From assembly GCA_964479945.1 (NCBI GenBank), contig CAYZNS010000004.1, positions 13,715 through 77,714 on the forward strand: 64,000 nucleotides of DNA, read 5' to 3'. Shown piece by piece: positions 2,818 to 64,000 of the stretch. Source of the stretch: an uncultured Candidatus Saccharibacteria bacterium. GTDB lineage: Bacteria; Patescibacteriota; Minisyncoccia; Ryanbacterales; 2-02-FULL-48-12. Position 1 is the stretch's first letter. Each line of letters begins with the position of its first letter. The position numbers and the translations under genes were made by a program. The notes under the pieces were generated by a model. It was given only the letters and a program-made list of their open reading frames with translations. It did no database searches and was not told the DNA's origin.

Positions 2818-3948
2818 ATGCAGAATCAAGTTTTATATAGAAAATACCGTCCCCAGAGCTTTGGCGACGTGGTGGGGCAGGCGCATGTTACAACCCTTCT
2901 AAAAAATGCCGTCAAGCTGAACCGGGTGGCGCACGCGTTTTTGTTTTCCGGTCCGCGCGGCACGGGAAAAACTACCGTCGCGCGGCTCTTGGCGAAAGCG
3001 GCAAGTTGCGAGAAGCCCAAAGACGGCGAGCCATGCAACACATGCGGCATATGCAAAGAATTTTCTTCCGGCGCCTCGCTTGATCTTATTGAAATAGACG
3101 CGGCCTCTTCCCGCGGCATTGACGATATTCGCGAACTGCGGGAGTCTGTGCGCTTGGCGCCCAGCCGCGGCAGGTATAAGGCGTACATCATCGACGAGGT
3201 GCATATGTTGACAAAAGAAGCATTTAATGCTCTCCTCAAAACTTTGGAAGAGCCGCCGGCGCACGCGATGTTCATTCTTGCGACCACGGAGTTTCAAAAA
3301 ATGCCGGAGACCATTGTATCCCGCACGCAGCATTATGAATTCCGTAAAATCGCAACGCTCGCCATTGTGGACCGCCTCTCCATGTTGGCAGAGAAGGAGG
3401 GGATCAGCGCCGAAAAAGATGCGTTGCGCCTTATAGGCATATTTGCAGACGGCGGCTTGCGCGACGCCGAGAGCATGCTGGGGCAGGTGGCAAGCGGCCG
3501 CGATAAGCTCACGGCGGAAGACGTGCGGCTGGTGCTGGGCGCGCCCAAGGAAGAACACGTACACGCGTTTATTGTCGCACTCTTTGCCAAAGACGCGGGA
3601 ACGGCGGCGCGCATTGCGAACGCCGCGATTGATGAAGGAACGGATCCGCAGATGTATCTTAAAATGAATATCCGCAATGTGCGGCATGTATTATTGCAAC
3701 GGCTTGACGCGAGCGCTGCGGTTCGTCTCAAGGACGATCTTACCGAAGCCGAACAGAAGTTTCTGGGTGCCGTGCCTGTAACGTTGAGTGTTCCGCAGTT
3801 GGAACACATGTTAAAATCCTTGATCGACGCCTACTGGATGAGTTATCGCGCTGTCTTCCCCCAGTTGCCGCTGGAGCTTGCCATTGTGGAAATTTTGCGG
3901 GATAGTTTTGGGGAGGAGAAAAAAGCAGTAAATCATATTGGGGAGTAG
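2818..3948 (+). CDS. dnaX: DNA polymerase III subunit gamma/tau, short form
   Basis: YRPQSFGDVVGQ..., Walker A GPRGTGKT, Zn-module CxxC, DEVHML box. Confidence 0.88.
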   Translation: MQNQVLYRKYRPQSFGDVVGQAHVTTLLKNAVKLNRVAHAFLFSGPRGTGKTTVARLLAKAASCEKPKDGEPCNTCGICKEFSSGASLDLIEIDAASSRGIDDIRELRESVRLAPSRGRYKAYIIDEVHMLTKEAFNALLKTLEEPPAHAMFILATTEFQKMPETIVSRTQHYEFRKIATLAIVDRLSMLAEKEGISAEKDALRLIGIFADGGLRDAESMLGQVASGRDKLTAEDVRLVLGAPKEEHVHAFIVALFAKDAGTAARIANAAIDEGTDPQMYLKMNIRNVRHVLLQRLDASAAVRLKDDLTEAEQKFLGAVPVTLSVPQLEHMLKSLIDAYWMSYRAVFPQLPLELAIVEILRDSFGEEKKAVNHIGE

Positions 3949-5469: not shown

Positions 5470-7371
5470 ATGTCAAAGATACTAGGAATTGACCTCGGTA
5501 CCACCAACTCCGCCATGGCGGTGATGCAGGCGGGGCAGCCGAAAATAATAGAAAACAAAGAAGGGAACCGCACCACGCCGTCCATGGTAGCGGTCTCTAA
5601 AACGGCCGAGCGCCTGGCCGGTTTGCTTGCCAAGCGTCAGGCAATTACGAATCCTAAAAACACCATTTATTCCGCGAAGCGTCTGATCGGGCGCACGTTC
5701 ACGGACGCGCAGCTGGATAAGGACAAAGAAACCCTGCCATATGACATCCGCGCGTCGGCAAGCGGCGGCGTTGAGATTCGCATGGCGGATAAATGGTATA
5801 GGCCGGAGGAGATCTCTGCTATGGTTCTCCAGAAACTCAAGCATGATGCCGAAGAATACTTGGGCGAGAAAATAACGGAAGCGATTATAACCGTTCCTGC
5901 GTATTTTGACGACGATCAGCGGCAGGCAACCAAAAATGCGGGTGAGATAGCGGGCCTTACCGTGCGCCGAATTATCAACGAGCCCACGGCGGCCGCGCTT
6001 GCGTACGGGTTTGATAAAAAGAAGAACGAAAAGATAGTAGTGTATGATTTCGGCGGCGGCACGTTTGACGTATCAGTGCTGGAAATCGGCGACAATACCA
6101 TTGAGGTGCGCGCCACAGGCGGAGATACGCATTTGGGAGGGGATGATTTTGATCAGAAAATTATTGATCACCTTGTCGTGGAATTCAAGAAGGAATCCGG
6201 CATAGATATCTCAAAGGACGGCCTTGCCCTTCAGCGTCTTAAAGAAGCGGCGGAGAAAGCAAAACATGAATTATCTACTACGGTAGAGACGGAAATAAAT
6301 ATTCCCTTTATAACTTCCGGCGCGGACGGGCCGCAGCATCTCCTAATCAAGCTCGCGCGCGCCAAGTTGGAATCCCTGGTGAGTGAATATGTCTTACGCT
6401 CCGTGGAAATAACCAGGCAGGTAGTGCGCGATGCAAAATTTGAACTACACGCGATAGACGAAGTCATTTTGGTGGGCGGACAAACGCGCATGCCAGCCAT
6501 TGTAAATGCGGTGAAGGAACTGTTCGGCAAAGAGCCGAACAAGTCCATCAACCCGGATGAAGTGGTGGCGGTTGGAGCAGCTATTCAGGGCGGCATTATG
6601 CAGGGAGACGTAAAGGATGTTCTCCTTCTGGATGTAACACCGCTTTCGTTTGGCATTGAAACATTAGGGGGGGTATTTACGCGCCTTATAGAAAAAAATA
6701 CCACCATTCCCACGGCCAAAAGCCAGATATTTTCCACCGCCGCGGACAATCAAACGTCCGTGGAAGTGCACGTGCTGCAAGGGGAGCGGGAATTCGCGCG
6801 GGACAACAAAAGCTTGGGCCGGTTTATATTGGACGGTATCCCGCCTGCCCCCCGCGGCATGCCGCAAGTGGAGGTTACGTTTGACATTGATGCGAACGGC
6901 ATCCTCAATGTGAAAGCAAAAGACAAAGCGTCCGGCAAAGAACAATCCATTCGTATTGAAGCGTCTACCGGACTCTCCAAGGAAGAGATAGAGCGCATGA
7001 AGCAGGATGCGGCCGCGCATGCCGAGGAAGACAAGAAACGCAAAGAGACTGTGGAAATGAAAAATACGGCAGACGCGCTTATCTACACGGCGGAGAAGTC
7101 TCTCCGCGACGCGGGCGACAAAGCGCCGGAAGATATCCGCAAAGACGTGGAGACGAAAATAGAGGATCTCAAAAAAGCGAAGGAAGGGGATGACGCGCAG
7201 CAGATTCAAAACGTGTCCAGCGCGCTGCAAGCATCGCTTTCAAAGATAGGCGAGTATCTCTACAAGCAGCAGCCGCAAGAGAACAAAGGCACGCAATCAA
7301 CTGATGATAAGAAAGACAATGTGAAAGATGCGGAGTTCAAGGATGTAGAAGATAAGAATAAAGAATCATGA
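5470..7371 (+). CDS. dnaK: molecular chaperone DnaK (Hsp70)
   Basis: [18 protein letters not shown], full Hsp70 architecture, 633 aa. Confidence 0.95.
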
Positions 7372-7569
7372 ATCATGAATCATGAATTATGAAATATGGA
7401 AAACGTAAAACTCTAAACTCTAAGTCCTAAACAAGTCTCAAGTTCAAAGTGCAAAGTTCAAAAAGAGGTTTTTATGCTTTATGTTTTTATCTTCGAGTTT
7501 GTTTAGAGTTTAGGGTTTGGAACTTAGAATTTTTGTCCTTGATTCATAATTCTTACTTCATAATTCAAA
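7372..7569. repeat. heptamer-based imperfect palindromic spacer (catgaat / aactcta motifs and their reverse complements)
   Basis: tandem atcatga x3 at left edge mirrored by ttcataa repeats at right edge; nested inverted repeats seen directly. Confidence 0.6.
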
Positions 7570-8851: not shown

Positions 8852-9223
8852 ATGCAGAAATGCGTAGATTGCGGAGCATTCACGGATGTTGTGGAAGGCG
8901 GTTTCCAGTGTCCGGCTTGCGGGTTGTTTTTCCAGCGAAGCGCCGGAAACCGTATTCGTATTTCCGGAAATGAATTACGGCGTATTGCGTCCAAAGCTAT
9001 GAAAACAGAAGAATGGAGGTGTCCTGTGCAGTGTAAATGCGGATCAGATATGGCGCCTATAGATCAGGGAGTATTTTTATGCCATGCATGCGGTATAACG
9101 CGGGAAGTGAAAAACAACGAATGGAAAGAGAATGACCTGATCGCCCGCATGGACAAGCGGTTTAAGGGATTTCGCGATCATGTAAACACATTTTTTTACC
9201 TGCTGCGGCAATCGCCGTTCTAG
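8852..9223 (+). CDS. hypothetical double zinc-ribbon protein
   Basis: four CxxC pairs (CVDCG, CPAC, CPVQCKCG, CHACG); strong SD AGGAGGG before ATG at 8852 (the track ORF begins at an upstream TTG at 8822). Confidence 0.5.
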   Translation: MQKCVDCGAFTDVVEGGFQCPACGLFFQRSAGNRIRISGNELRRIASKAMKTEEWRCPVQCKCGSDMAPIDQGVFLCHACGITREVKNNEWKENDLIARMDKRFKGFRDHVNTFFYLLRQSPF

Positions 9224-9235
9224 AGGAGGTCTGTC

Positions 9236-9517
9236 ATGAGTGATGTTATGTTTCTATTGTTGCAGGTTGGTGATTTGCAGTTAACTGGTTACTGGGTGAG
9301 GCAATATGATATAAGCTGTCCATTTCGCGACTGCAAGTCAGATGATGTGTATGTTTTGTTCGATGGCCAAAGCCGCACCAGTACGTATCCTTACCGCTGC
9401 TGGAAGTGTGAGCAGGTGTGGTATTTTGCATATTCCCAATTCCCCATACCGGATTTCTTTAGCTTAAAGCGGGAAGGGAAAGACACGCGCATACCACAAG
9501 TTAACGTAAAGAAATAA
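9236..9517 (+). CDS. hypothetical small Cys-containing protein
   Basis: 93-aa ORF with SD GAGGAGG; CPFRDC and CWKC motifs. Confidence 0.4.
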   Translation: MSDVMFLLLQVGDLQLTGYWVRQYDISCPFRDCKSDDVYVLFDGQSRTSTYPYRCWKCEQVWYFAYSQFPIPDFFSLKREGKDTRIPQVNVKK

Positions 9518-10682: not shown

Positions 10683-10901
10683 TGTGGTGGTATAATAAGG
10701 ATAATTTTATATTGGAGGTGTCCTTATGCAGCAGGTAGATTGGAAACGAGTCCAGTCTTGCAGCGGTTTTGGCGAGAAGGTAATGATGCTGCGTCATCTC
10801 ACCGGTATTTCGGTGTACGCGGCAATGTTGGAGGTTGATAACCTGCTAAAAAGGAAAAAGGGAGGGAAAGTATTTAAAAAAGAAGGACACTAGGTAGTTT
10901 A

Positions 10902-12741: not shown

Positions 12742-12993
12742 ATGTCTTCCCAAAAACAAACAATAGAACAATCCCTTAAACGCCTCGAAAAGATCGTGGA
12801 AGAACTTAACGCACGCGACGTGGATGTTGAGGAAGGGCTTGCCAAATTCAAAGAAGGCGTGGAATTAATAAAGGCGTGCCGCAGCCAGCTGGGTCAGGCG
12901 GAAAATGAGTTTAAGAAATTACAAAAGGAGTTAGATGCTGATGATAAAAGTACTTTTTTTGAAGGAGGAGAAAATAATAGTGATGAATTATGA
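12742..12993 (+). CDS. xseB: exodeoxyribonuclease VII small subunit
   Basis: SLKRLEKIVEELNARDVDVEEGLAKFKEGVELIKACRSQL; ATG at 12742 (the track ORF begins at an upstream GTG). Confidence 0.75.
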   Translation: MSSQKQTIEQSLKRLEKIVEELNARDVDVEEGLAKFKEGVELIKACRSQLGQAENEFKKLQKELDADDKSTFFEGGENNSDEL

Positions 12994-13106
12994 AGCATGA
13001 ATTATGAATTACGGAGAAAAAAGAATTGCGAGTTTTATAATACTTTTCCATAATTCCATATTCATGATTCATGTAAATAGATGAGTAATCGTATTGATAG
13101 AAAATA

Positions 13107-16058: not shown

Positions 16059-16424
16059 ATGAGTTATTTGGATCAAGAAGGTGTAAGCGGCATATTTCTG
16101 TCGGAAATCATCATTCAAGCAACACCAGGGTACGCGTCGTGGGAGCTCGTCAAGAAAAATATACAGCATTCAGGCGAAACGCGGCTCATCTGGGCAGTTT
16201 TTTATGAAGCCGTTGGGTATCTTCTAAAACACTATCAAGAACATGTCTGCAATGCCGCCGTAAAGCGGGAGATCAAAGATGTGGAAGATTGGATTAACAA
16301 CAATGATGATGCTTGGCCATTTAGTTTTATAAATATTTGCAGAAATCTTGGATTAGATCCTGACTATGTTCGGAGCGGGATCGCGCGCAAAAAGCGAGTC
16401 CTTTCTGGACTAGTACCCCATTAA
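16059..16424 (+). CDS. hypothetical protein, paralog 1 of a tandem pair
   Basis: shares C-terminal W..F.F.NIC..LGL.P.Y.R.G block with the following ORF; SD present. Confidence 0.5.
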   Translation: MSYLDQEGVSGIFLSEIIIQATPGYASWELVKKNIQHSGETRLIWAVFYEAVGYLLKHYQEHVCNAAVKREIKDVEDWINNNDDAWPFSFINICRNLGLDPDYVRSGIARKKRVLSGLVPH

Positions 16425-16526: not shown

Positions 16527-16928
16527 ATGGGTGTCAATGATTCATGGAAGGGCGCTAATACATTAGGAAACTGCACAATCTTGCCGGAACAATTTTTTCC
16601 GGTGCAAAGCCACAAATTCACGCCTGAGATGAGATTGTTGGTCGCCATCCTTGAAGATGCTCTTCACATTTTTCAACGATGTGCGCATGCAAGAACAAGG
16701 CGTGAACGGCGCCTTTGGGAGGAAGTACGGGATTGGTTCTGGGATAAGGAGGAGTCAATATGGTTGTGTAATTTTGAAAATATTTGCGGCATATTGGGGT
16801 TGGAACCCGGGTATCTCCGATGCGGGCTAACCGCATGGCTAGAAAAGGCAAAACAAGATCCTCAACTTAAAATACCTCTCCGGCAGCGCGTAAATAGATG
16901 CGGCAGTCATCGCGTCTCTGATGAATAA
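16527..16928 (+). CDS. hypothetical protein, paralog 2 of a tandem pair
   Basis: EMRLLVAILEDALHIF…WLCNFENICGILGLEPGYLRCG aligns to paralog 1. Confidence 0.5.
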   Translation: MGVNDSWKGANTLGNCTILPEQFFPVQSHKFTPEMRLLVAILEDALHIFQRCAHARTRRERRLWEEVRDWFWDKEESIWLCNFENICGILGLEPGYLRCGLTAWLEKAKQDPQLKIPLRQRVNRCGSHRVSDE

Positions 16929-24708: not shown

Positions 24709-24857
24709 GCTATCCGCGCCTAGGCGGATCCGCCTTGGGCGGAAAATTCGTACGTTTTTATTCCCAATTTATCCAAATGAAAACCGCCCGACCAATGCCA
24801 GACGGTTTAATGGCAAGAACTCGCAAATCAGAGCAAGTGCCAGGATTGTGATCAGTT

Positions 24858-25034
24858 AGAAAGTGTTTACAAACCCTTCGTAGCGAAGCTTTCCTGCTTT
24901 GAGCTGATACAAGGAAGGCAAGTAAAACGGCATAAGGCGTAGCAACGCTACGGTGAAATGCTGTTTTACGCAGCCTGACGCCGTAGCAGCCAAAGCAGGA
25001 AAGCTGCAGTAGAAGGGGTTTGTAAACACTTTCT
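24858..25034. repeat. 177-nt rod-like hairpin element with 5' GCCAGGATTGTGA box
   Basis: perfect 19-bp outer stem AGAAAGTGTTTACAAACCC/GGGTTTGTAAACACTTTCT, 14-bp second stem, internal GCTACGG/CCGTAGC stem. Confidence 0.6.
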
Positions 25035-25076
25035 TAGTGACTTACAACTTACAACTTTTTTTGCTATACTATACTC

Positions 25077-27352: not shown

Positions 27353-27733
27353 ATGATTTTAACTTCCGACTATCTTAAAGAATCACGCAGGACGCTCCTT
27401 AAAAAACGGGTGCGGCTGTTCGTTGCAATAAGTACTATTTTCTTGGTGGGCGCCTATTTTGCTTATCAGACGAGCGACGCCATGCGTCCGCCGGAACTTG
27501 AGATAGCGCAGCCCGCCGACGGCGCCACGCTTGACGGGCCGGTAGTTGTGGTGGAAGGTTTTGTCACGCCCGGCATCCGATTGACAGTGTATGGCGTAGA
27601 AGCGTATAGTGGGAACGATGGACGGTTCTACGTAGAGCTGCTGTTACCGGCGGGGTTGCATGTTATAGGTATCAGCGCGGAAAACAGGTTTGGTAAAACA
27701 AGTTCCCTGGAGCGCAGAATAGTGGTGAAATAA
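27353..27733 (+). CDS. hypothetical membrane-anchored protein with beta-rich extracytoplasmic domain
   Basis: single N-terminal TM helix, 126 aa. Confidence 0.4.
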   Translation: MILTSDYLKESRRTLLKKRVRLFVAISTIFLVGAYFAYQTSDAMRPPELEIAQPADGATLDGPVVVVEGFVTPGIRLTVYGVEAYSGNDGRFYVELLLPAGLHVIGISAENRFGKTSSLERRIVVK

Positions 27734-27855
27734 CTTTGAATAACGAAAACCGCAGGGAATGTGACTAACCGAGCTCTGCACACAAGCGAAGCGAAGTGTG
27801 AATAGCTCGGTTTGGCACATTCCAGATGTCAAATAATGCGTTTCGTTATTCAAAG
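27734..27855. repeat. long palindromic element, copy A of the GTGACTARCCGAGCT family
   Basis: outer inverted repeat CTTTGAATAACGAAA/TTTCGTTATTCAAAG; core boxes GTGACTAACCGAGCTC and AGCTCGGTTTGGCAC; inner hairpin CACAC…GTGTG. Confidence 0.75.
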
Positions 27856-27871
27856 TAAATAAGCAATACGT

Positions 27872-29124: not shown

Positions 29125-29217
29125 CTCGTAACTCGTAATCCGTAACTCGTAATCCGTACCAGGAAGATTAATAAGATAAAATTCCTTTGTACGAGTTACG
29201 GTTTACGGATTACGAAT
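29125..29217. repeat. hairpin of CTCGTAA/TTACGAG heptamer repeats between rpsR and ssb
   Basis: ctcgtaactcgtaatccgtaactcgtaatccgta … tacgagttacggtttacggattacga inverted arms. Confidence 0.7.
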
Positions 29218-29226
29218 CCCTGTTTT

Positions 29227-29679
29227 TTAAAACGGTATTTCTTCCGGATTAACGTCGTCTTCGGGGTATTCCACGGTTGCAACATCTTCTTGTGGCGCTT
29301 TCCTTGCCGACGCCGCACCTGTGGTACCCCCGAGAGATGATCCGGTTGCGCGCGGGCCAAACTGGAAATTCTCCACAATTATCTCCGTGCGCGACTTTTT
29401 CTGCCCGTCCTGCCCGTCCCATGATCGCGTCTGCAGGCGGCCTTCTACATAGAGCGACCCGCCTTTTTTCATGTATTGGTGGATTAACTCTGCCGGTTTT
29501 CCGAATGCAACAAGATTATGAAATTCAGCCTGCTGCTGCTTCTGGCCGCTTTGATCCGTCCAGGTACGGTTTGTTGCCAAGCCAAAATTCACAACCGGTT
29601 TGCCGGAAGGAAGCGTTTTTAATTCCGGATCCCGCGTGAGATTTCCAATAAGAAGCGCTTTGTTTAGATTCATATTCAC
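29227..29679 (-). CDS. ssb: single-stranded DNA-binding protein
   Basis: OB fold, Gly/Gln-rich linker and acidic EEIPF C-terminal tip. Confidence 0.9.
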   Translation of the reverse strand: MNMNLNKALLIGNLTRDPELKTLPSGKPVVNFGLATNRTWTDQSGQKQQQAEFHNLVAFGKPAELIHQYMKKGGSLYVEGRLQTRSWDGQDGQKKSRTEIIVENFQFGPRATGSSLGGTTGAASARKAPQEDVATVEYPEDDVNPEEIPF

Positions 29680-29767
29680 GTATAACGTGTAACATGTAAC
29701 GTATAACGCAAGAAAAATATATGTATTGTTTCTTCACGTTCTACGTTCTACGCTTCACGTTTTATGA

Positions 29768-30217
29768 TTAATTTCCTAATATTTCATCCAACTTTTTATC
29801 CAACTCTTTTTCATCAACTTTTTCCGCTTGCTTTTCGGGCGTGTCCGCCGGAGGCACGCTGCCTGCAGCTGTTTTTAGTCCCGGCGCGCGTCCGCGCCGT
29901 ACTATCGGCTGGGCAGTTGTGCGCTCCCACGACAGCACTAAATGCCTTACAATGGTATCGTGCGTTTTTACTTCCCGTTCAATGCCGCCAATTGCGGGGG
30001 GTGCGATGGAAAATTGCAGCGCGGCGAAATAGGCCTGCTCTATTTTACGAATGGGATAAGAAAGCTTGCGGATTTTCGGATCCGTGGTTCTCTCGAGCAT
30101 ACCGTTGTATTTTTCAATAATGGACCGAACATTGCCAAGTTCCGCCGCAGCTTCCTCTTCCGATAGCTCCGATTTTATAAGCAGGCCTATTTCATATAAC
30201 TGCGGCTCTTGTGCCAT
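29768..30217 (-). CDS. rpsF: 30S ribosomal protein S6 with acidic/Lys-rich C-terminal extension
   Basis: YEIGLLIKSELSEEE… S6 fold; rpsF-ssb-rpsR order. Confidence 0.75.
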   Translation of the reverse strand: MAQEPQLYEIGLLIKSELSEEEAAAELGNVRSIIEKYNGMLERTTDPKIRKLSYPIRKIEQAYFAALQFSIAPPAIGGIEREVKTHDTIVRHLVLSWERTTAQPIVRRGRAPGLKTAAGSVPPADTPEKQAEKVDEKELDKKLDEILGN

Positions 30218-30252: not shown

Positions 30253-30338
30253 GCAGGTATTTGCCTCGCAGGGCTTGACAAATATTTTATAACATGCTAT
30301 TCTGTCGGCAGAATTAAGAACAAGTGTCTCACCAAAGG

Positions 30339-30482
30339 GGTAAGAGTTCACAAACTCGAGTAAGCGCCAGGATTGTGACTAGCCGAGCTTTACACACACG
30401 CCAAGGCGGTGTGGATAGCTCGGCTTGGCACATCCGGAAATGGAGAAAAGCAATTATTGCTCGAGTTTGTGAGCTGTTACCC
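30339..30482. repeat. long palindromic element, copy B (GCCAGGATTGTGACTAGCCGAGCTT … AGCTCGGCTTGGCACATCC)
   Basis: outer inverted repeat GGTAAGAGTTCACAAACTCGAG/CTCGAGTTTGTGAGCTGTTACC; inner hairpin CACACACGCC…GGCGGTGTGG. Confidence 0.75.
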
Positions 30483-30491
30483 AAAGAGAAC

Positions 30492-30520
30492 TTGACAAGA
30501 ATAGTATAACATGCTATAAT
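30492..30520 (+). promoter_or_regulatory. consensus promoter TTGACA-17-TATAAT
   Basis: perfect hexamers with 17-nt spacer; ~300-nt leader to the next ORF. Confidence 0.55.
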
Positions 30521-30824
30521 ATATCCATAAAAAGAGGATGTACTTCCTAACCGCTTTTCTTTTGTGGAAAGAATGATGGAGGAGAGAGGGCAAATAGGAT
30601 CGGCACTAAATATACATAAGAGGCCGTTACTCCTTACAATCGCCTTCATCGTTCTCTCTATGAAATGAGAGGAGAGATTGGAATAGTTCTTTGTTGAAAT
30701 AACATAAGCGTTCAAACGTGGAACGTAAAGCGTAAAGCGTTAAAACGAATAGCCGGAGAAGTTCTTTGAATTAAATAGTGCTGTTGCTCATATAGATTTC
30801 TGGCCGCTTTTGAGGAGATAGAAA

Positions 30825-31256
30825 ATGTCTTTTCAAACGCGGCTGGAAACTATATTAACCAGCCCGTCAGCTTACCGAGCTACAGAAGCTGAAACGCCAG
30901 AGGAGGCACCAATGGCACGAATAGATTGCACGAAGACAAATTGCGAAACTTTTCGGCAGTTGATTGAAAAACTCAATACCGAAGGGTTCGATATAGATCA
31001 CTTTCATGCGGTTGACCTTATTGAGGTCGATGCTGACTATAGTGGAGGAGAAAAGGTGGTCTATGTCCTCGAGGGCGATATCTTGAAAAAAGGGATAGAG
31101 ATGGTCGTTCATCTCAATTTCGTCTTCGATAAAAACGGCGTCGTAGAAGATGCCGCATGGTCTTCGGGAAATGAGTTGGACGAGAGGATTCACCCTCTCG
31201 ATCAAGATCCGAGAGGCTGGTTCAAGCTTGTTGCCGACGAGTGGCACGAACGATAG
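30825..31256 (+). CDS. hypothetical acidic protein (143 aa)
   Basis: SD GAGGAG; no recognisable family; C3-rich codon usage unlike core genes. Confidence 0.45.
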   Translation: MSFQTRLETILTSPSAYRATEAETPEEAPMARIDCTKTNCETFRQLIEKLNTEGFDIDHFHAVDLIEVDADYSGGEKVVYVLEGDILKKGIEMVVHLNFVFDKNGVVEDAAWSSGNELDERIHPLDQDPRGWFKLVADEWHER

Positions 31257-31266
31257 GAGGGGTGTC

Positions 31267-31623
31267 ATGAAAGAGTTAGATAAGTTTTTTTCGGGTCTCC
31301 AGTCTTGGTACCGGACCCCCATTCGCACCATCTGCCCGTCGTCCCCCTGCCTGTATAAGGGTTGTATTCTCGAGGTTTTGCTCTCAGACCTCGAGATGGA
31401 TTGCCCTGACACAGGGCATCAGGGCTTCCTCTGCTCGGCAGAGGATGGGACGATGGTAGTCTTCGACGAAGCAGGCGGATTGGCTCGGGTCGCCGTTTTC
31501 TGTGGAAATGTGGAAACGGCGAAAAGTCTTTGCCCGGAGGAGCTCCAATGGAGCTTCTACTGGGCAGAAATGAGGGGAGGTGAAATTCACCTCCTGCCGA
31601 GCAAGAACCCCTTCCTGGAGTAA
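31267..31623 (+). CDS. hypothetical Cys-containing protein (118 aa)
   Basis: SD AGGAGGGG 7 nt upstream of ATG; immediately follows the preceding ORF. Confidence 0.45.
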   Translation: MKELDKFFSGLQSWYRTPIRTICPSSPCLYKGCILEVLLSDLEMDCPDTGHQGFLCSAEDGTMVVFDEAGGLARVAVFCGNVETAKSLCPEELQWSFYWAEMRGGEIHLLPSKNPFLE

Positions 31624-31907
31624 CCCCCGTTACAGAAACTCCTCAAAAAATTAATCCGGCCATGCACTGGCTGGCGGCAAGGAAAAGCACTTTTCCTGCG
31701 GGCATTGGTAGGTTCCGAAGCATTTCGGAAGTCCGTTCTCAACGACATCGAGAGAACAAAAACCTACTCTTCTACAAAGCTTTCAAAATGTTTTGAAGGC
31801 TTTGAGAGGAAAGTTCTTCAAAATTACATTATCTCCACTTGTTGGGATGTGTAAGGCGATAGTAGTCGCTTTATATATCTCAATAAGAAAGGAGGTGATA
31901 CTCTACC

Positions 31908-32123
31908 ATGGGCCGGTGGGTCCGATATTTTATCGGCACCCCCGAGCGGTTCATGAGGACGGTGGTTGTCTTCGGACTGATCATTGTCATCCTGAACCCG
32001 GGCTTGCTCGCGTCAGCTGCGAACCAGCTGATTGCCGAGTTAAGCCCGCTCCTCGGGCCCGCGTTGACGATCTTGATCGTCCTCGCGGGAATCCGGATGA
32101 TCCTTGGGGGTCGCCGGAAGTAA
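31908..32123 (+). CDS. hypothetical small membrane protein (71 aa, 2 TM)
   Basis: SD AAGGAGGTGA; hydrophobic; followed by GTCCAC-ttcg-GGTGGAC hairpin. Confidence 0.5.
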   Translation: MGRWVRYFIGTPERFMRTVVVFGLIIVILNPGLLASAANQLIAELSPLLGPALTILIVLAGIRMILGGRRK

Positions 32124-32328
32124 CCGTTGGACTCGGGGACGGCCTGTCCACTTCGGGTGGACGGAGGCGCGCGGATATGCGTCTTGGCAACGGAAGAGGG
32201 TTTCTGGAATTGGCCAGAACACTTCAAAAATATCAGAGGGCGACAGAGGTCCCTCCGCACAAAAACCTCTCCACAACCGAGTTTTCAAAAAAAGTTTGAA
32301 GACTCAAAGTGGAAGTTCTTTGAAACAA

Positions 32329-32449
32329 CCCAGCACTAAATTTTTGGTTTAAATAGTGTGTGACTAACCGAGCTCTATCCCGGTGCAACCGCGGATGGAC
32401 AGCTCGGTTTGGCACTATACAAATATCGAACCAAAAATTTAGTGCTGGG
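32329..32449. repeat. long palindromic element, copy C
   Basis: outer inverted repeat CCCAGCACTAAATTTTTGGTT/AACCAAAAATTTAGTGCTGGG; core GTGACTAACCGAGCTC…AGCTCGGTTTGGCAC. Confidence 0.75.
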
Positions 32450-32536
32450 CAAAAAATCAGTGATTATGTTTGCGCGGTTCATAAAAGAGCGCAATGGCTA
32501 GCATGCCAAGCATGAATAAAAAAATAATTGCTTCAA
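32438..32536 (-). CDS. possible tiny hydrophobic peptide (32 aa)
   Basis: MPVSLFEAIIFLFMLGMLAIALFYEPRKHNH; speculative, no SD. Confidence 0.2.
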
Positions 32537-32557
32537 AAAGTGACACGGGCATAGTTT

Positions 32558-32650
32558 ATTCTTTATGACGCATGGCCCATATAAAAATAATGGTTCCCAT
32601 AGCTCCGATGGCAAGATATGCAAGCATGAGTTTTTGGTTTATGTCCATGG
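32558..32650 (-). CDS. possible tiny hydrophobic peptide (30 aa)
   Basis: MDINQKLMLAYLAIGAMGTIIFIWAMRHKE; tandem with the previous one; speculative. Confidence 0.2.
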
Positions 32651-32769
32651 AATGTTTAAAATTTAACCAGCAGCGGAGATTCGGAAAAACCTCTCCCGCG
32701 AGGAGTATGTGCGGGGTCAGCTGGAGGAGTGGGAGAGAAGAAAAAAGAATTTAAACTGAGGAGGAAAAT

Positions 32770-33027
32770 ATGCCGTTTGAGTTTCCCTACTGCCAGACCC
32801 CAGACGGGGATGATTATGTCTGCCATTGCGGGGTGGCGCTGGTGAAAATCGGCGAGGATGACATGGAGTGGGAAGAAGATGATGATACCCCTCGATCGCA
32901 CATCCGATTCTTCGAGTGCACCGCATGCAAAGAATATTGCGCGGACTGCACAGGAGAATGGGTGCAAGAGGGGATATCAGGACTCGTCCCACTTAACCCG
33001 GCAGACGACAACATCCACGCCAGCTAG
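32770..33027 (+). CDS. hypothetical acidic Cys-rich small protein (Zn-ribbon-like)
   Basis: SD GAGGAGG; CHCG…CTACKEYCADC. Confidence 0.45.
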   Translation: MPFEFPYCQTPDGDDYVCHCGVALVKIGEDDMEWEEDDDTPRSHIRFFECTACKEYCADCTGEWVQEGISGLVPLNPADDNIHAS

Positions 33028-33267
33028 AGGCGGCCTGTCTAGCGCCCTTGCCATGTAAAATAAATCACGCCCCGCAACGGGATGCGTGATGTGCTCCGAC
33101 ATGGCGGAGACGGATCTCTCCACAAAGAGAGGCATCCGTGAGTGGGGACCCTGCCGAAGCAATAAGGCACGGGCGGGACCACAGCGCATGTATGGGAGGG
33201 TTACACACAAAACTCTCCCTACCTTTCTTGAGTACATGTTCTATAATGAAGATGTACTCAAATCAGG

Positions 33268-33573
33268 TTCACCCACACACCTTTTAGGAACATAGCAATG
33301 CATTATTTTTACATCCTTAAAAGTCAGATTGATAAGAAACTATACCGAGGATTTACCGGTAATCTTCGCAGACGATTTGACGAACATCAAAATGGCCGTG
33401 CTCTTTCAACGAAAAATCGTAGACCTTTTAGTTTGGTATATTATGAAGCATATAGATCAAAAACAGATGCGACCCGTCGTGAACAGCAGATGAAATTGAA
33501 TGCGAAGGCTTGGAGTCAGCTTAAGCGGCGTATTGCAACGAGTATAGAAGATACCTAAAAGGTGTGTGGGTAA
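33268..33573. repeat. 17-bp inverted repeats bracketing the GIY-YIG gene
   Basis: TTCACCCACACACCTTTTA (33268-86) vs TAAAAGGTGTGTGGGTAA (33556-73, overlapping the stop codon). Confidence 0.6.
33298..33558 (+). CDS. GIY-YIG nuclease-family small protein
   Basis: YFYILKS…KLYRGFTGNLRRRFDEHQNG…FSLVYYE…RRE matches the GIY-YIG core. Confidence 0.8.
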   Translation: MHYFYILKSQIDKKLYRGFTGNLRRRFDEHQNGRALSTKNRRPFSLVYYEAYRSKTDATRREQQMKLNAKAWSQLKRRIATSIEDT

Positions 33574-33759
33574 ACCGCCACAAGGCTGTTGAGTCAGTAC
33601 AACGGAATCGGGTTAAAGCGACGTTGTGAGATTTTTTAAAGATCTCTCTCCTCTAAACAATGTTTCTTGACCCGTATAATTTCTGTTTGCTGGCTCACAG
33701 CCTTGTGGCGGTACATAAAAAACCGCCTCGGATAATCGAGGGGGCACGTATCTCCATAC

Positions 33760-42732: not shown

Positions 42733-43608
42733 ATGCAAGATGTTGATGCTAATAGGTATAAAAGCGGGTTTTCGGTAATAGAGCTTTTAGTGGTTATTGC
42801 GATCATCGGTATATTGTCGAGTATTGTGCTTGTCTCGCTTCGCACTTCGCGCGAAAGCGCGCGCGTGGCAAGTATTATTGAACACGCTTGGTCTTTGCAC
42901 ACCCTGCTGAACGTGAATTGTATCGCGGGATGGGATTTTGAAGGAGTTGCAGGTGTTACCGTGCCGGATGAATGCGGCGGGTATAACGGCACCATAAACG
43001 GCGCTACGGTGTCAACAGACGGCGTTAATAAGGGCGCGGCGCTGGCATTTGACGGTGTGGACGATTATGTTGATCTCGGTGTAATTGATATTGACGCTGA
43101 TGGGCCAGGTGAGGACGGCATGACGATAAGCGCATGGTTCAAAGCGGACGCGTGGACGAACGGCATTTATCACGATGGGCGCATTATTGAAAAATCCTGG
43201 AACCATTACAACAACGGCATATTCTGGATGCTCAGCACAATTGCCGTTGGCAGCGATACCCGCTTGCGGTTCCGTCTGAAAACGGGTGGCGTTACGGACG
43301 TACTCATTGCGGACAGAGGCAACCTGGATCTGGACCGCTGGTACTTTGCGGTTGCTACATACAACGGCAGCGAGATGAAGCTTTATCTAGACGGTCAGCT
43401 CGTCGGCAGTATGGCAAAGACGGGTATCGTTGATAAAGACAGCAATTATCCGGCGTTTATCGGAAACAGTTCCGACTTGGTGCGTCCCTGGTCCGGTCTC
43501 ATTGATGATGTGCGGATATATGCGGAAGCCGCACCCTTGGCCGCTATACAACATTGGTATGCTCGAGGCATAAGGGAACGCATGCTTGCGCGCGCCGGTT
43601 CGCTATGA
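42733..43608 (+). CDS. type IV pilin-like protein with LamG/concanavalin-like domain
   Basis: prepilin leader GFSVIELLVVIAIIGIL; LamG-like DGVDDYVDLG…ISAWFKADAW…LYLDGQLVGS. Confidence 0.75.
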   Translation: MQDVDANRYKSGFSVIELLVVIAIIGILSSIVLVSLRTSRESARVASIIEHAWSLHTLLNVNCIAGWDFEGVAGVTVPDECGGYNGTINGATVSTDGVNKGAALAFDGVDDYVDLGVIDIDADGPGEDGMTISAWFKADAWTNGIYHDGRIIEKSWNHYNNGIFWMLSTIAVGSDTRLRFRLKTGGVTDVLIADRGNLDLDRWYFAVATYNGSEMKLYLDGQLVGSMAKTGIVDKDSNYPAFIGNSSDLVRPWSGLIDDVRIYAEAAPLAAIQHWYARGIRERMLARAGSL

Positions 43609-46026: not shown

Positions 46027-46037
46027 GCAAAGCAGAC

Positions 46038-46722
46038 GCCAGGATTGTGACTAGCCGGGCTTCGCACACGCCCTGCAAGGGCGCTGTGAGTAGCCAGGCT
46101 TGGCACACTCCCCCACCAAAATTTTTGGTGGGGGAGCACATCCGGAAAAAGGTGGACAAAAAATTAAAAGTATGCTAAAAACTATGCAGACAGCAAACTG
46201 CATAGTTTTTTTGAAAGGGGGATTTGAAATGTCTGATCAGGAAAAAATACATGTTGCGTTATGCAATATTGGCAACATACATCTCACTAGAAAGATGGGC
46301 GAAATTATAGTATTTTGCTCCTTTAATAACCATATCAATTTCTATTTTAATGAGTCGGGAGTGCTTGAGGAGATTGAACTTTATAATTCACCTTCGTATC
46401 ATAGAAATATCCTCCAAGCCAGACATGAGTGGACAGGAACGCTTATCGGCGTCCGGTTGGAAGGAGATGAGTTATATCTCTATCCAAATAACGCTGGACT
46501 CGTGAAAGTGAATCTGAGAACTGGTTTCTTATACACAAAGTAACATTGATTGGGAGAGGGTGATATTCTCTCCTTTTTTATTGACATTTTTGATGTGTGC
46601 GTATATCATATTGATATTAATCTATATGTAATTTATTTTTGAAGTTTCTGTATCAATGCATTCTGGATGTGCTCCCCAACCAAAATTTTTGGTGGGGGAG
46701 TGTACCAAGCCGGGCTACTCGC
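46038..46722. mobile_element. palindromic element copy D split by a ~520-nt insertion with 58-nt terminal inverted repeats and a cargo ORF
   Basis: left TIR 46086-46143 and right TIR 46665-46722 each contain the 29-nt palindrome CTCCCCCACCAAAATTTTTGGTGGGGGAG; interior has its own terminator, SD, low-GC ORF, second terminator and a TTGACA-17-TATCAT promoter. Confidence 0.5.
46229..46543 (+). CDS. hypothetical protein (104 aa), cargo of the inserted element
   Basis: SD AAGGGGGA; AT-rich codon usage; no family recognised; the track ORF begins at an upstream ATG (46100) inside the repeat. Confidence 0.45.
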   Translation: MSDQEKIHVALCNIGNIHLTRKMGEIIVFCSFNNHINFYFNESGVLEEIELYNSPSYHRNILQARHEWTGTLIGVRLEGDELYLYPNNAGLVKVNLRTGFLYTK

Positions 46723-46749
46723 ATCGCCATTTAAATTAGCCACATCACT

Positions 46750-50684: not shown

Positions 50685-50806
50685 ATGTACTGTGAATTAC
50701 GAAATGCATTATTTGACATCTGGAATGTGTCATTTCGTAATTCACAGAATGTATATAATCCGTGAGCGAAGCGAACACCAAAATTTTGAATTTTGCACTT
50801 TAAATT

Positions 50807-54081: not shown

Positions 54082-54843
54082 ATGATCTGTAACACGACGT
54101 TGGATCGGCTGGCTCTTGAAGTTTTAAGGGCCGATGCACTGGAACTTAGAGATGTTCCGAAAAAGGTGACTAACGAAGAAGTGGAGTACTTGCCTCTTAA
54201 CACGCAACCATTTCTTTACGCCTCGGGTAACTGGGGTCCCGGTTACCTCATGATTAAGGGTCTGGTCGGCAATAAGCCGTTGATCAGGTGCCTTGGCCGC
54301 TACTTGGCGTTTGAAATCGGCGAGAAATGGTCGACCGAAATCGACTTTGTTGCCGGCAACGTTACCGGCGGCATGATCCTTGGGTGGTTGATCAGCGAGG
54401 AATTGGAGGTTCTTCTCGGCAAGCGGATCCCATTCGTTTACATTCGTGAACTTCGGAAAACTGGCGGCCAAAAGGAACTCATCACCGGATATCAAAAGAA
54501 TCAGGAAATCCCCCCCGGCTCCAGCGGCTTGGACATGGAAGAACTGGTCAACTTCGCCCAGACCATTGTCAACGGCGCGGTTTGCCTTCGCGAAGCGGGC
54601 TTCGTTTGCACGAAGGGTGCTTGCGTCCTTTACTACGACAACCCCGTCGCGAACAGGAATTTGGCCGAAGCCGGAATCGAAATGGTTTCATTGCTTACTC
54701 TTCCCAGGGTCATCGACGTGGCCGAGCGGTTTAGCACGCATCCCAAGGAACTCTTGGCTGAGTACCGCGAATTCTTGAGGAATCCGCTACAATGGCAGGC
54801 TGATCGCGGTTTGACGCATGTAGAGAAGGGGGGCACGAAATGA
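54082..54843 (+). CDS. type I phosphoribosyltransferase, orotate-PRTase-like with divergent PRPP loop
   Basis: VAGNVTGGMILGWLISEEL and GSSGLDMEELVNFAQTIVNGAVCLREAGF align to PyrE blocks but the PRPP-binding loop (GSSGLDMEELVNFAQT) lacks the canonical acidic (V/L)(V/I)DD(V/I) signature; strong SD AAAGGAG; ATGA overlap with pyrF. Confidence 0.55.
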   Translation: MICNTTLDRLALEVLRADALELRDVPKKVTNEEVEYLPLNTQPFLYASGNWGPGYLMIKGLVGNKPLIRCLGRYLAFEIGEKWSTEIDFVAGNVTGGMILGWLISEELEVLLGKRIPFVYIRELRKTGGQKELITGYQKNQEIPPGSSGLDMEELVNFAQTIVNGAVCLREAGFVCTKGACVLYYDNPVANRNLAEAGIEMVSLLTLPRVIDVAERFSTHPKELLAEYREFLRNPLQWQADRGLTHVEKGGTK

Positions 54844-61062: not shown

Positions 61063-62216
61063 TCGCAACGGGCATATTCCCGCCGGATATCGGAGGACCG
61101 GCGACATACAGCAAGGTATTGGCTGAAGAGCTTGTTAAGCGCGGGCACACAGTTACGGTTGTTACATACGGTAGCAATGAATCAAGAAGTAAGAATCAGG
61201 AATCAAGGAATAATAATTACGAGTTACGAGTTACGAGTTACGAGTTACGAAAAGGTATCCGGCACATGGTTTATTTCTGGCGCGTATACCGCGCGGGCCG
61301 CAATGCCGATGTAATCTACGCGCAGGATGCGGTAAGCGCGGGGTTTCCGGCGGCAGTGGCCGCACTTCTGCTCAAGCGGCGTTTTATACTTAAAATTGTG
61401 GGGGACCATGCATGGGAGCAAGGTGTGCAGCGCTTCGGCGTGCGGGACTTGCTGGATGATTTTCTTGGGAAATCATATGGCGCGCGCGTCGGCATGCTGC
61501 GCATGGTACAACGGTTTGCGGGCCGAAGAGCAAAGCACATTATCGTGCCAAGCGAATATTTAAAATCTGTGGTAGAACGGTGGGGCTTGAAGCCGGACAA
61601 AATAACAGTTATCCCGAACGCGGTTTCCATTTCACAGAATCTCGTATCAAAAAAGGAAGCGCGCGCGAAATTGGGATTGGATAGTGAAGCTTTTATTCTT
61701 CTTTCCATAGGCCGCCTTGTACCATGGAAAGGATTTGGGATGCTGATTGAATTGATGCCTCGAATTACCGCGAAAATTTCTGACGCAAAACTTATTATCA
61801 TAGGAAATGGTCCTGATGAAGATATATTACGAGTTACGAGTTACGAGTTACGAGTTCCCGTTATATTTACAGGTGGTATTCCAAAAGAAAATATTGCTCT
61901 GTATCTTGCGGCGGCTGATATGTTCTGCCTCAACACGGCTTATGAGGGTTTCTCTCATCAGCTTATTGAAGCTATGACCGCCGGTATTCCGGTGATAACA
62001 ACGAATGCGGGGGGTAATAAAGAAATCATACGGGATGGAGAAAATGCGTTGGTAGCGCGGTATAATGATGATGCAGACTGGCAAGAGAAAATTTTCTTAC
62101 TGTATCATAATGAGGCGTTGCGCCTTCGTCTGTCCCGTGGAGGAGAACATATTGCGGATCATTATTCTCTGGAGCGCATGGTTATAAAGACAGAATCCAT
62201 AATCCGTAATTCATGA
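61050..62216 (+). CDS. GT4-family glycosyltransferase with two in-frame TTACGAG tracts
   Basis: IFPPDIGGPATY…, C-terminal EGFSHQLIEAMTAGIPVITT; repeats encode …NNYELRVTSYELRKG… and …DILRVTSYELRVPV…. Confidence 0.8.
   Translation: MRIVIATGIFPPDIGGPATYSKVLAEELVKRGHTVTVVTYGSNESRSKNQESRNNNYELRVTSYELRKGIRHMVYFWRVYRAGRNADVIYAQDAVSAGFPAAVAALLLKRRFILKIVGDHAWEQGVQRFGVRDLLDDFLGKSYGARVGMLRMVQRFAGRRAKHIIVPSEYLKSVVERWGLKPDKITVIPNAVSISQNLVSKKEARAKLGLDSEAFILLSIGRLVPWKGFGMLIELMPRITAKISDAKLIIIGNGPDEDILRVTSYELRVPVIFTGGIPKENIALYLAAADMFCLNTAYEGFSHQLIEAMTAGIPVITTNAGGNKEIIRDGENALVARYNDDADWQEKIFLLYHNEALRLRLSRGGEHIADHYSLERMVIKTESIIRNS
61217..61251 (+). repeat. TTACGAG x4 (+1 degenerate) heptamer tandem repeat inside a coding sequence
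   Basis: seen directly. Confidence 0.9.
61827..61854 (+). repeat. TTACGAG x4 heptamer tandem repeat inside a coding sequence
   Basis: seen directly. Confidence 0.9.
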
Positions 62217-63250: not shown

Positions 63251-64000
63251 AAGTCTGTTATATAGTGCCGGAAATTGCGGAAGATGCCTCAACGCATTTT
63301 GAGCATAAGCGGGAAATTATACAGGAGCTTCGGGGCGATATTGAATTTTTTGTATATGCTCCGACTCTTATAAGCATCGTGAAAATCAAATTTGCTTATT
63401 TTTTCCGCGGCGTTCGCATATTCTATGTGCATTATTCATTCAAGGGCGCGCTCGTTGCCATACTCCTTACAAAACTTTTTGGCGGCAGGGTCTTTTACTG
63501 GAACTGCGGTATGCCATGGTTGTATAAGCGCGGGTGGCTGGAGGAGAAATTATTTAGATTTATTTTACGGAACTCGATATTTGTTACCGGCACGAATTCT
63601 CTTGCGGAACACTATGCTGATCGGTATGGGCTTGATCGCGCGCGCGTACGCGTAGTGCCGAATTATATTCGCGTCTCGCATATGCAGGGAATTACGCGCG
63701 ATTCAGCGCGTAGGGAACTTGAGATTCCATCGGGTAAAAAGGTTGTACTTTTTCTGCATCGCCTCTCGCGGCGCAAGGGGGCGCATTTTTTGCCGGATAT
63801 TTTAAAAGAGTTTGCGATCAGGGAAGACGTACTATTTTTGATAGTCGGCGACGGCCCCGAACGTACCAATACCGAGTTACGAGTTACGAGTTACGAGTTA
63901 CAAAACAGGGTTCGTTTTGAGGGAAATGTGCCAAATAATCGTGTGCCAATTTATTTCGCAGCCGCGGATGTTTTTCTTATGCCTTCCGAAGAAGAGGGGA
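63238..64000 (+). CDS. GT4-family glycosyltransferase (3'-truncated by window) with in-frame TTACGAG tract
   Basis: ATG at 63238 overlapping the upstream stop; …LFLIVGDGPERTNTELRVTSYELQNRVRF…FLMPSEEEG; not in the ORF track because it has no in-window stop. Confidence 0.65.
63877..63897 (+). repeat. TTACGAG x3 heptamer tandem repeat inside a coding sequence
   Basis: seen directly. Confidence 0.9.

Follow-up and report, generated by a model that had tools for sequence, protein, structure and literature searches.

What makes up the 3.4-kb segment between ychF and rpsF in the genome of an uncultured Candidatus Saccharibacteria bacterium, and does it represent one acquired accessory system or several unrelated units? 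The locus lies in a stretch of 64,000 nucleotides (nt) of contig CAYZNS010000004.1 (assembly GCA_964479945.1, positions 13,715 to 77,714 of the forward strand), the whole of which was analysed and is hereinafter referred to as the window. The genomes of Patescibacteria (candidate phyla radiation, CPR) are tiny, and a high proportion of their genes is without known function. A first-pass annotation of the window had described five open reading frames (ORFs) in this gap as a horizontally acquired island, possibly a toxin/immunity pair or a defence module. The anatomy given there proved mostly right, and the assignment to foreign, lineage-specific DNA was supported. With moderate confidence, we interpret the locus as a lineage-specific mosaic of independent small cassettes and not as one multi-gene system; the attractive but unsupported label of a "defence island" was removed. 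The analysis provides a base-pair-level view of orphan genes as small, separately signalled cassettes in a conserved junction.

The ychF-rpsF gap and its orphan genes

According to Pfam assignments, the left side of the locus comprised ftsK, a gene for a Glucodextran_B-domain protein, recA, and then rpsR-ssb-rpsF (- strand), and the genes to the right of the islet (30.2-33.7 kb) were ychF (-), phosphomannomutase, miaA, a class II tRNA synthetase, and dnaE. The islet itself extended over approximately 30270-33715 (3.4 kb), flanked by the ychF terminator and the rpsF promoter, within a ychF-rpsF gap of 3.5 kb. All five ORFs described earlier were present, with stop codons as claimed. The coding features of the islet and its right-hand edge were as follows.

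30912-31256, + strand: O1, 114 amino acids (aa), isoelectric point (pI) 4.6, rare new family
31267-31623, + strand: O2, 118 aa, pI 4.6, 7 Cys, orphan located 10 nt 3' of O1, with a Shine-Dalgarno (SD) sequence AGGAGG that overlaps the O1 stop codon
31908-32123, + strand: O3, 71 aa, pI 11.9, two transmembrane (TM) segments, G+C at third codon positions (GC3) 0.82, SD AAGGAGGTGA at 31889-31898
32457-32552, - strand: mini-ORF p31, 31 aa, one TM stretch, basic C-terminus, no SD
32556-32648, - strand: mini-ORF p30, 30 aa, one TM stretch, basic C-terminus, no SD
32770-33027, + strand: O4, 85 aa, pI 4.05, 7 Cys including CxxCxxxCxxC, SD GAGGAGG at 32758-32764
33266-33576, + strand: GIY-YIG mini-unit, an 86-aa ORF (O5, 33298-33558) inside a 23-nt inverted repeat
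33726-33741, - strand: intrinsic-terminator-like hairpin with a T run, directly 3' of the ychF stop codon, forming the right-hand islet edge

For the analysis of synteny, 80 loci were retrieved with YchF, and the window proteins were searched against them by tblastn. YchF of the window, which belongs to a Parcubacteria-like patescibacterial genome, was at most 59% identical to that of any of 185,579 species representatives, with the top matches in Parcubacteria, Sungbacteria, and related metagenome-assembled genomes (MAGs). The gene order pmm(-)-ychF(+)-rpsF-ssb-rpsR(+)-recA(-) was kept in about 20 Parcubacteria-type genomes. In none of these did the ychF-rpsF gap encode relatives of O1-O4, so the region is lineage-specific. 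The length of the gap in relatives was 22 nt (L012), 62-126 nt (L016, L017, and L011), or more than 5 kb (L007), and its contents varied by genome. Within the gap of the window, the GC content ranged from 37% to 65% over 3.4 kb, giving a mosaic. This composition supported the claim of horizontal acquisition, as did the 90% identity of the O1 leader to a Sungbacteria contig and the location of the O1 homologue at a different locus in that genome (see below). Protein clusters at 90% identity contained solely the source genome's own sequences.

Among the features of genomic islands, absence from relatives at a conserved locus and atypical composition were found, and an integrase, a tRNA, and border repeats were not. 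Specifically, there was no tRNA within 11 kb of the islet, no border or att-like repeat at its edges, no recombinase domain among the scanned window ORFs of at least 100 aa, and no integrase in the window. The last point is relevant to a comparison with integron cassette arrays, as is the fact that the cassettes carry their own promoter. The locus resembles flexible-genome islets or "moron"-like cassettes in its conserved junction, its absence from relatives, its atypical composition and codon usage, its own promoter and ribosome-binding sites, and its richness in orphans. It differs from them in the missing integrase, tRNA, and direct repeats at the edges, in packing at least five unrelated modules into 3.4 kb, and in lying within an SD-less patescibacterial core.

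The islet would have been built by accretion of several small modules, each with its own signals. The first of these would be a self-contained expression cassette, consisting of a promoter (P2), a structured leader of ~385 nt, a family-specific hairpin with an SD sequence, O1, and O2, which would move horizontally among Patescibacteria with O2 as a variable passenger. The other modules would be O3 with its repeats, the two hydrophobic peptides, O4, the GIY-YIG element, and two copies of a long-hairpin repeat. O1-O4 may derive from a source whose genes rely on SD sequences, be it a mobile element or a different lineage, since they use SD sequences and a codon dialect of their own, whereas the conserved genes of the host are SD-less.

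O1, its 5' leader, and its downstream partner

O1 belongs to a very rare family. A word-index search of 5.8e9 proteins yielded two close homologues, P0012 from a Sungbacteria MAG (61% identity) and P0013 (51% identity), and a profile search of 1.84e9 representative proteins yielded 21 clusters or representatives at E<1e-3. Some family members stand alone, with 77-125 aa, and others form the C-terminal domain of larger proteins (180-430 aa). Their genes occupied various genomic sites, and the GC content of the hosts was 38-64%. In the Sungbacteria genome (locus L084, contig JACOYX010000026.1), the homologue was located at another locus, beside ftsX/ftsE/prfB. In L086 and L092, the homologues lay within runs of same-strand ORFans without Pfam matches, and ten ORFs neighbouring them showed no match to PHROGs. 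O1 had no match in Pfam or, by profile search, among PDB sequences; it was not found in the INPHARED phage and PLSDB plasmid records, and its profile detected nothing in IMG/VR.

Seven residues of the family were invariant (L17, L21, H30, H32, H67, D109, and H112). O1 conformed to the family pattern RxDC(T/S)...TFxxL...GFxVDHFH...HLN...PxG...LVADEWHER, the last motif of which ends the protein. The AlphaFold2 model of O1, computed from 16 sequences, was beta-rich with one helix and was predicted with high confidence (predicted local distance difference test, pLDDT, 92.3; predicted template modelling score, pTM, 0.82). No structure in PDB or BFVD matched this model in a Foldseek search (best E = 0.15, TM <0.4). 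O1 may be a small metal-binding protein; a metal site is inferred because an HxH motif (H30 and H32) lies on one strand, H67 on another, and D109/H112 at the C-terminus. O1 is of interest for the great rarity of its family, for a confident model that resembles no fold found in PDB or BFVD, and for its likely metal site.

The region upstream of O1 contained the following features.

30275-30303, + strand: promoter-like site P1, TTGACA-17-TATTCT, 10/12 match, 5' of hairpin element B
30492-30520, + strand: sigma-70-type promoter P2, TTGACA-17-TATAAT with a TG extension, 12/12 match
30527-30911, + strand: O1 5' leader, ~385 nt, the 5' end of which is inferred from the promoter position
30868-30911, + strand: O1-family motif of the 5' untranslated region (5'-UTR), a hairpin at 30868-30891 followed by GCCAgAGGAGGCACCA right before the ATG

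The perfect promoter reported previously at 30492-30520 was thus recovered, and it resembled the promoter 5' of the O1 homologue in L084 (84% over 31 nt; L084 1660-1690). P1 is a 27-nt duplicate of P2 (direct repeat 30274-30300 / 30491-30517, 85% identical), with element B between the two copies. Over its last 156 nt, the O1 leader was 90% identical to L084, compared with 56-62% for ychF, recA, ssb, and rpsR of the same Sungbacteria genome and with 55% and 74% for the two halves of the O1 coding sequence. Because the leader is far better conserved than the core genes, and because the homologues occupy different sites in hosts of 38-64% GC, the O1 cassette is likely to be mobile.

O1 had been annotated from position 30825, but its true start was ATG 30912, preceded by the SD sequence GAGGAGG at 30900-30906. 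The two closest homologues start at MAR(I/V)DC, as do most members of the family. An N-terminally extended O1 of 143 aa was rejected: indels in L084 break the frame over 30825-30911 though the DNA is conserved, and the N-terminus of the family is MAR(I/Q)DC. A leader hairpin of ~30 bp (30787-30853) encloses the ATG at 30825 and the preceding GAGGAG, both in paired positions.

A 5'-UTR hairpin was common to seven O1-family loci. Its outer stem of 6 bp covaried and was followed by a bulge and then by the core CCG-AnnnA-CGG, in which the copy of the window (CCG-AGCUA-CAG) contained one C-A mismatch. The second shared element was GCCAAAGGAGGCACCA directly before the AUG, and the window copy consisted of the hairpin followed by GCCAAAGGAGGCACCA-AUG; the distance from the hairpin to the SD sequence varied from 5 to ~20 nt across the seven loci. 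In an alignment that was fitted by hand to the structure, and whose pair counts are biased towards it, 87% of cells were paired and the 9 pairs showed 15 extra pair types, a level that none of 2000 partner shuffles attained. Trained on six of the loci, a covariance model (R1) detected the held-out copy of L086 (34 bits, E = 3e-6). The window motif scored 64 bits with R1, as a member of its training set, and neither the window nor 31 other loci contained a second site above ~19 bits. At the Rfam gathering score, neither the leader nor the hairpin elements B and C gave a match; only tRNAs were returned, and the sub-threshold matches were to generic miRNA-hairpin models. No leader hairpin was found in IMG/VR.

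A conserved hairpin-plus-SD RNA leader therefore accompanies the O1 family across hosts. It is comparable to autoregulatory 5'-UTR leaders, such as those of ribosomal-protein genes, in being a short covarying hairpin with a conserved loop-closing core, upstream of an SD sequence and associated with one protein family. It differs from these in matching no Rfam family and in accompanying an uncharacterised protein family. O1 would act alone, and its expression would be controlled via the conserved hairpin, possibly by O1 itself. The family and its hairpin may form a mobile self-regulating unit, in which a small metal-dependent protein would bind to the RNA of its own leader or to a nucleic-acid hairpin akin to it. 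Such a unit may spread among Patescibacteria and other uncultured bacteria, recruiting variable downstream genes.

As had been noted, the O1-O2 pair is acidic, both proteins having a pI of 4.6. The overlap of the O2 SD sequence with the O1 stop codon makes translational coupling of O2 to O1 probable. The search of 5.8e9 proteins returned only O2 itself, and its single-sequence AlphaFold2 model was unusable (pLDDT 38). The genes 3' of O1 homologues encoded proteins of 143 aa (L084), 276 aa (L086), 73 aa (L087), 186 aa (L088), and 113 aa (L092). None of these was similar to O2, and the only similarity among them was a 21-residue N-terminal match between L088 and L092. No adjacent same-strand gene followed the O1 homologue in L090, L097, and L099; in L100, a distance of 327 nt separated it from the next gene. 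O1-O2 is accordingly not a conserved unit, since the partners elsewhere are unrelated or missing. The co-occurrence analysis suggested by the first-pass annotation thus spoke against a toxin/immunity pair, with an unrelated partner in five other loci and no adjacent partner in four.

Three further observations were made on O1 and its homologues. Eleven consecutive O1 codons (31146-31178, AAWSSGNELDE) showed no synonymous difference from L084, while 8 of 14 codons differed in an adjacent stretch of identical amino acid sequence; the former could reflect nucleotide-level constraint or a recombination patch. The fused protein P0016 (430 aa; L094-L096 6001-7293), which carries the O1 domain at its C-terminus, is encoded ~800 nt from recA-HTH/Glucodextran_B-ftsK in another CPR lineage, the same neighbourhood as that of the islet in the window. 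In L084, a candidate type III hammerhead with a perfect CUGAUGA...GAAA core was found at 3106-3160 (36.2 bits; Rfam cutoff, 48.5). The O1-like two-gene cassette lay ~150 nt upstream of it, and a tRNA gene (3268-3338, -) was located at a distance of ~110 nt. No hammerhead was detected in the window.

Translation signals, codon usage, and competing explanations

Strong SD sequences had been reported before all five ORFs. They were confirmed for O1-O4 (AGGAGG type) but not for the GIY-YIG ORF, which was preceded by AGGA only. When SD sequences of at least 5 nt within 20 nt of the start were scored across the window, they were found in 0 of the 38 Pfam-positive genes, consistent with the earlier statement that core genes mostly lack them. 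Examples of conserved starts without an SD sequence were 27353, 36183(-), 38447(-), 42733, 49419, and 57129. A -10-like (TATAAT-like) hexamer was present 3-14 nt before the ATG in 16 of these 38 genes, whereas the frequency at random positions was 4.7%, a pattern suggestive of mostly leaderless initiation in the conserved host genes.

The proposed preference for C-ending codons was borne out in pooled O1-O4 for GTC (14/28 vs. 0.09 in core genes, p=3e-8), CTC (16/38 vs. 0.13, p=9e-6), ATC (0.50 vs. 0.26, p=0.017), and TTC (0.65 vs. 0.35, p=0.008), but CCC showed no clear enrichment (0.32 vs. 0.25). The shift was seen in each of O1, O2, O3, and O4; in O1, the overall frequency of C at third positions (C3) was average, though the use of GTC, CTC, and TTC was shifted. 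C3-rich codon use had also been claimed for the GIY-YIG ORF, and this did not hold: with a GC3 of 0.30 and a C3 of 0.10, its bias was the opposite of that of O1-O4. The preference of core genes for GCG, CCG, and ACG was reproduced.

The genome may thus have two translation-initiation regimes, in which conserved genes are leaderless or SD-less and lineage-specific or acquired small genes depend on a canonical SD sequence. If this is true, the SD sequence itself would mark the accessory gene pool and be a possible lever for its regulation. If the split is genome-wide, it would be a simple sequence marker of accessory genes and a clue to the organisation of translation in CPR bacteria. A joint reading, with O1 as a self-regulating mobile unit and, more broadly, two initiation regimes in the genome, is speculative and to our judgement rather improbable. 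A search of the available literature for SD use in Patescibacteria found nothing relevant.

Several points weigh against the preferred interpretation. The following ORFs elsewhere in the window also had strong SD sequences.

8852-9223, 9236-9517, 10726-10893, 16059-16424, 16527-16928, and 54082-54843: six further SD-led ORFs without Pfam match

SD-led orphans are consequently not confined to the islet. All ten strongly SD-led ORFs of the window lacked a Pfam match, several of them with raised GTC use, and some of the six outside the islet shared this feature. The SD sequence may therefore mark a translation class instead of foreign origin. The ORF at 54082-54843 (253 aa) overlaps the start of pyrF (orotidine 5'-monophosphate decarboxylase) by 4 nt, and it might be a highly diverged enzyme of the pyrimidine pathway and not a foreign orphan. 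Neither an integrase or transposase nor a flanking tRNA or target-site duplication was found at the islet. With relatives as distant as the YchF values indicate (at most 59%), a recent gain is inseparable from an old variable spot. Moreover, the region was 100% identical to the window in three other contigs and gave no population signal or signal in the ratio of nonsynonymous to synonymous substitution rates (dN/dS) for expression or selection of O2-O4. The putative metal binding of O1 is read solely from conserved residues, and the hand fitting of the 5'-UTR alignment noted above belongs with these points.

A toxin/immunity, toxin-antitoxin, or defence/anti-defence system made of O1-O2, possibly with O3 or the mini-peptides, would have the acidic O1 neutralise or assist a fast-evolving partner. 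O1 and O2 are indeed small, adjacent, co-oriented, acidic, and probably coupled across a 10-nt gap, like type II toxin-antitoxin or toxin-immunity pairs. In L084, L086, L087, L088, and L092, too, the conserved gene comes first and an unrelated one second, and p30 and p31 are like type I toxins in size and shape. However, Pfam, NCBIfam, PADLOC, and PHROGs searches of seven ORFs matched nothing besides the GIY-YIG domain, in agreement with the earlier remark that no other family was recognisable, and no toxin or antitoxin domain was detected in O1-O2. In PADLOC-DB 2.0, O1-O4, p30, and p31 had no match, and O5 reached only E = 0.028. Furthermore, the partner is absent in L090, L097, and L099 and 327 nt off in L100, the partners share no detectable similarity beyond the 21-residue match, and O1 is often alone or fused to the C-terminus of larger proteins. 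We regard such a system as unlikely. A defence module was likewise not borne out: it found no PADLOC, Pfam, or PHROG match, the GIY-YIG gene is a separate unit, and the SD/codon signature is common to other orphans of the window. An origin as a decayed prophage, integrative element, or cassette array, with O1-O4 as moron-like cargo carrying their own promoters and ribosome-binding sites, was also judged to have a small probability. It would account for the strong promoter, the SD sequences, and the foreign codon dialect, as well as for the inverted repeats around the GIY-YIG unit, the hammerhead type III match and tRNA following the O1 cassette of L084, and the ORFan runs of L086 and L092. Against it stand the lack of an integrase, of structural or replication genes, and of att-like repeats, the lack of PHROG matches for O1-O4 and for the neighbours in L086 and L092, and the lack of relatives in IMG/VR, INPHARED phages, and PLSDB plasmids.

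If the region were instead ancestral, the ychF-rpsF gap would be an old variable spot with fast-evolving native orphans, and the SD sequences would be a native regulatory class. This is compatible with a gap of variable size (22 nt to more than 5 kb) and unrelated contents across all relatives, with SD-led orphans elsewhere in the window, some of them with raised GTC use, and with the want of close relatives to date the gain. It is hard to reconcile with an O1 leader that is 90% identical to a genome whose core is ~60% identical and whose O1 homologue sits elsewhere, with a family that is patchy across hosts of 38-64% GC, and with the sharp GC swings within the islet; we consider it quite improbable. 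Least probable is that O2, O3, O4, and the mini-ORFs are chance ORFs in a region of mainly non-coding structured RNAs and repeats. In favour of this view, none of the 5.8e9 proteins was a homologue of O2 or O4, structure prediction failed for O2, hairpins are densely packed in the region, and the identical contigs provide no polymorphism signal. Nevertheless, O1-O4 are four same-strand, non-overlapping ORFs with ATG starts, each with an SD sequence of 6-8 nt at a functional spacing. By comparison, the remainder of the 128 kb (both strands) contained only four wrong-frame ORFs of at least 70 aa with an SD-like motif, all with TTG or GTG starts and none with a full AGGAGG. In addition, GC3 > GC1 > GC2 holds in the called frames, all four ORFs share one codon dialect, O1 is validated by its homologues, and independent gene callers annotated the same ORFs. 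A mosaic of small cassettes thus remained the preferred interpretation.

Other modules of the islet and further features of the window

The remaining features of the islet were as follows.

30338-30482, + strand: hairpin element B, -82.5 kcal/mol, z = -11.8, inner hairpin GTGACTAGCCGAGCT...AGCTCGGCTTGGCAC with a copy-specific outer stem of ~24 bp
31759-31825, + strand: direct repeat flanking O3, left copy
32261-32327, + strand: direct repeat flanking O3, right copy
32329-32449, + strand: hairpin element C, -68 kcal/mol, z = -11.4, inner hairpin as in B with an unrelated perfect 21-bp outer stem (100% complementary)
33194-33229, + strand: terminator-like hairpin with a T-rich tail, 3' of O4

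The GIY-YIG ORF is bracketed exactly by its 23-nt inverted repeat (33266-33288 / 33554-33576; 96% complementary), which had no other occurrence in the window (0.01 matches expected by chance). O5 matched PF01541 over residues 1-71 with 56 bits (E = 4.9e-15; cutoff, 22.6), which places it in the superfamily, where short stand-alone proteins are its nearest counterparts. A candidate Tyr...Tyr...Arg...His...Glu pattern was discernible by eye in its translation (YFYIL, LYRGFTG, RRRFDEH, and YYEAY). The 86-aa protein consists of the catalytic domain only; it scored 19.7 bits against TIGR01453 (cutoff, 56) and does not qualify as an I-TevI-like homing endonuclease. Unlike GIY-YIG homing endonucleases, O5 has no DNA-binding domain and is surrounded by a 23-nt inverted repeat, and its composition is unlike that of O1-O4. 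The gene and its inverted repeats probably form a selfish mini-element.

O3 proved to be the two-TM mini-protein described earlier. Its flanking repeats were imperfect (~65 nt, ~70% identical), with sub-repeats D1 and D4 both 502 nt apart. Its match to the type IV secretion pilin family T4SS_pilin (PF18895; E = 0.11, 13 bits) was below the cutoff of 26.6. The two tandem hydrophobic peptides of the opposite strand were also found, in a region with a weak 22-nt DNA repeat (D5) at a distance of 114 nt. Their shape fits type I toxin peptides, and an antisense promoter-like site at 32409-32438 had just a 9/12 match. O4, which had been described as an acidic Cys-rich protein and agreed with that description, is probably Zn-binding; the word-index search of 5.8e9 proteins returned only O4 itself. 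No matches to O2, O3, O4, or O5 were found in IMG/VR.

The palindromic elements B and C, the latter located between the convergent O3 and p31, are real but not specific to the islet, and further copies are spread across the window.

27733-27860, 46037-46147, 46661-46731, ~24812-25040, and 50685-50732: other hairpin-element copies

Members of this family (120-150 nt) share a conserved inner hairpin GTGACTARCCGRGCT...AGCYCGGYTTGGCAC, and their outer stems are unrelated between copies yet pair near-perfectly (z = -8 to -12). The core pattern was absent from 97 loci of other genomes and from IMG/VR. As imperfect, intergenic palindromes of 120-150 nt with at least five copies in the 64-kb window, B and C resemble repetitive extragenic palindromic (REP) sequences, bacterial interspersed mosaic elements (BIME), enterobacterial repetitive intergenic consensus (ERIC) sequences, or repeats like miniature inverted-repeat transposable elements (MITE). 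In contrast to MITE terminal repeats, it is the inner hairpin that is conserved, while the outer stems differ in sequence yet pair. The motif GAAGTTCTTTGAA was rejected as a marker of cassette boundaries, its two exact copies not exceeding the chance expectation.

Just after ahpC, a 147-aa ORF without Pfam match (46100-46543, GC3 0.38) was found between 71-nt inverted repeats (46077-46731; 89% complementary). These repeats contain the core of the hairpin element, and the arrangement resembles a small element bounded by inverted repeats. Intergenic tandem 7-nt repeats (TACGAGT, ATGAATC, TTTTGCA, and similar) were abundant, and inverted pairs of them form long hairpins, for example at 29133-29172 / 29176-29215 between rpsR and ssb.

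1387-1460, 7347-7417, 12962-13032, 29125-29231, 29674-29776, 61177-61266, 61825-61862, and 63868-63905, among others: 7-nt repeat regions

Directly upstream of rpoB, the SD-led orphans 16059-16424 and 16527-16928 are paralogues with a common motif, F.NIC..LGL(D/E)P.Y(V/L)R.G. The position upstream of rpoB is usually that of rplJ and rplL; an assignment to these genes was rejected, as the two ORFs have no Pfam match and are paralogues of one another. In addition, a VirD4/TraG-like type IV coupling protein was encoded from the edge of the window (6-1382), and a type IV pilin-like protein (N_methyl and LamG; 42733-43608) was encoded adjoining prfB and rpsB.

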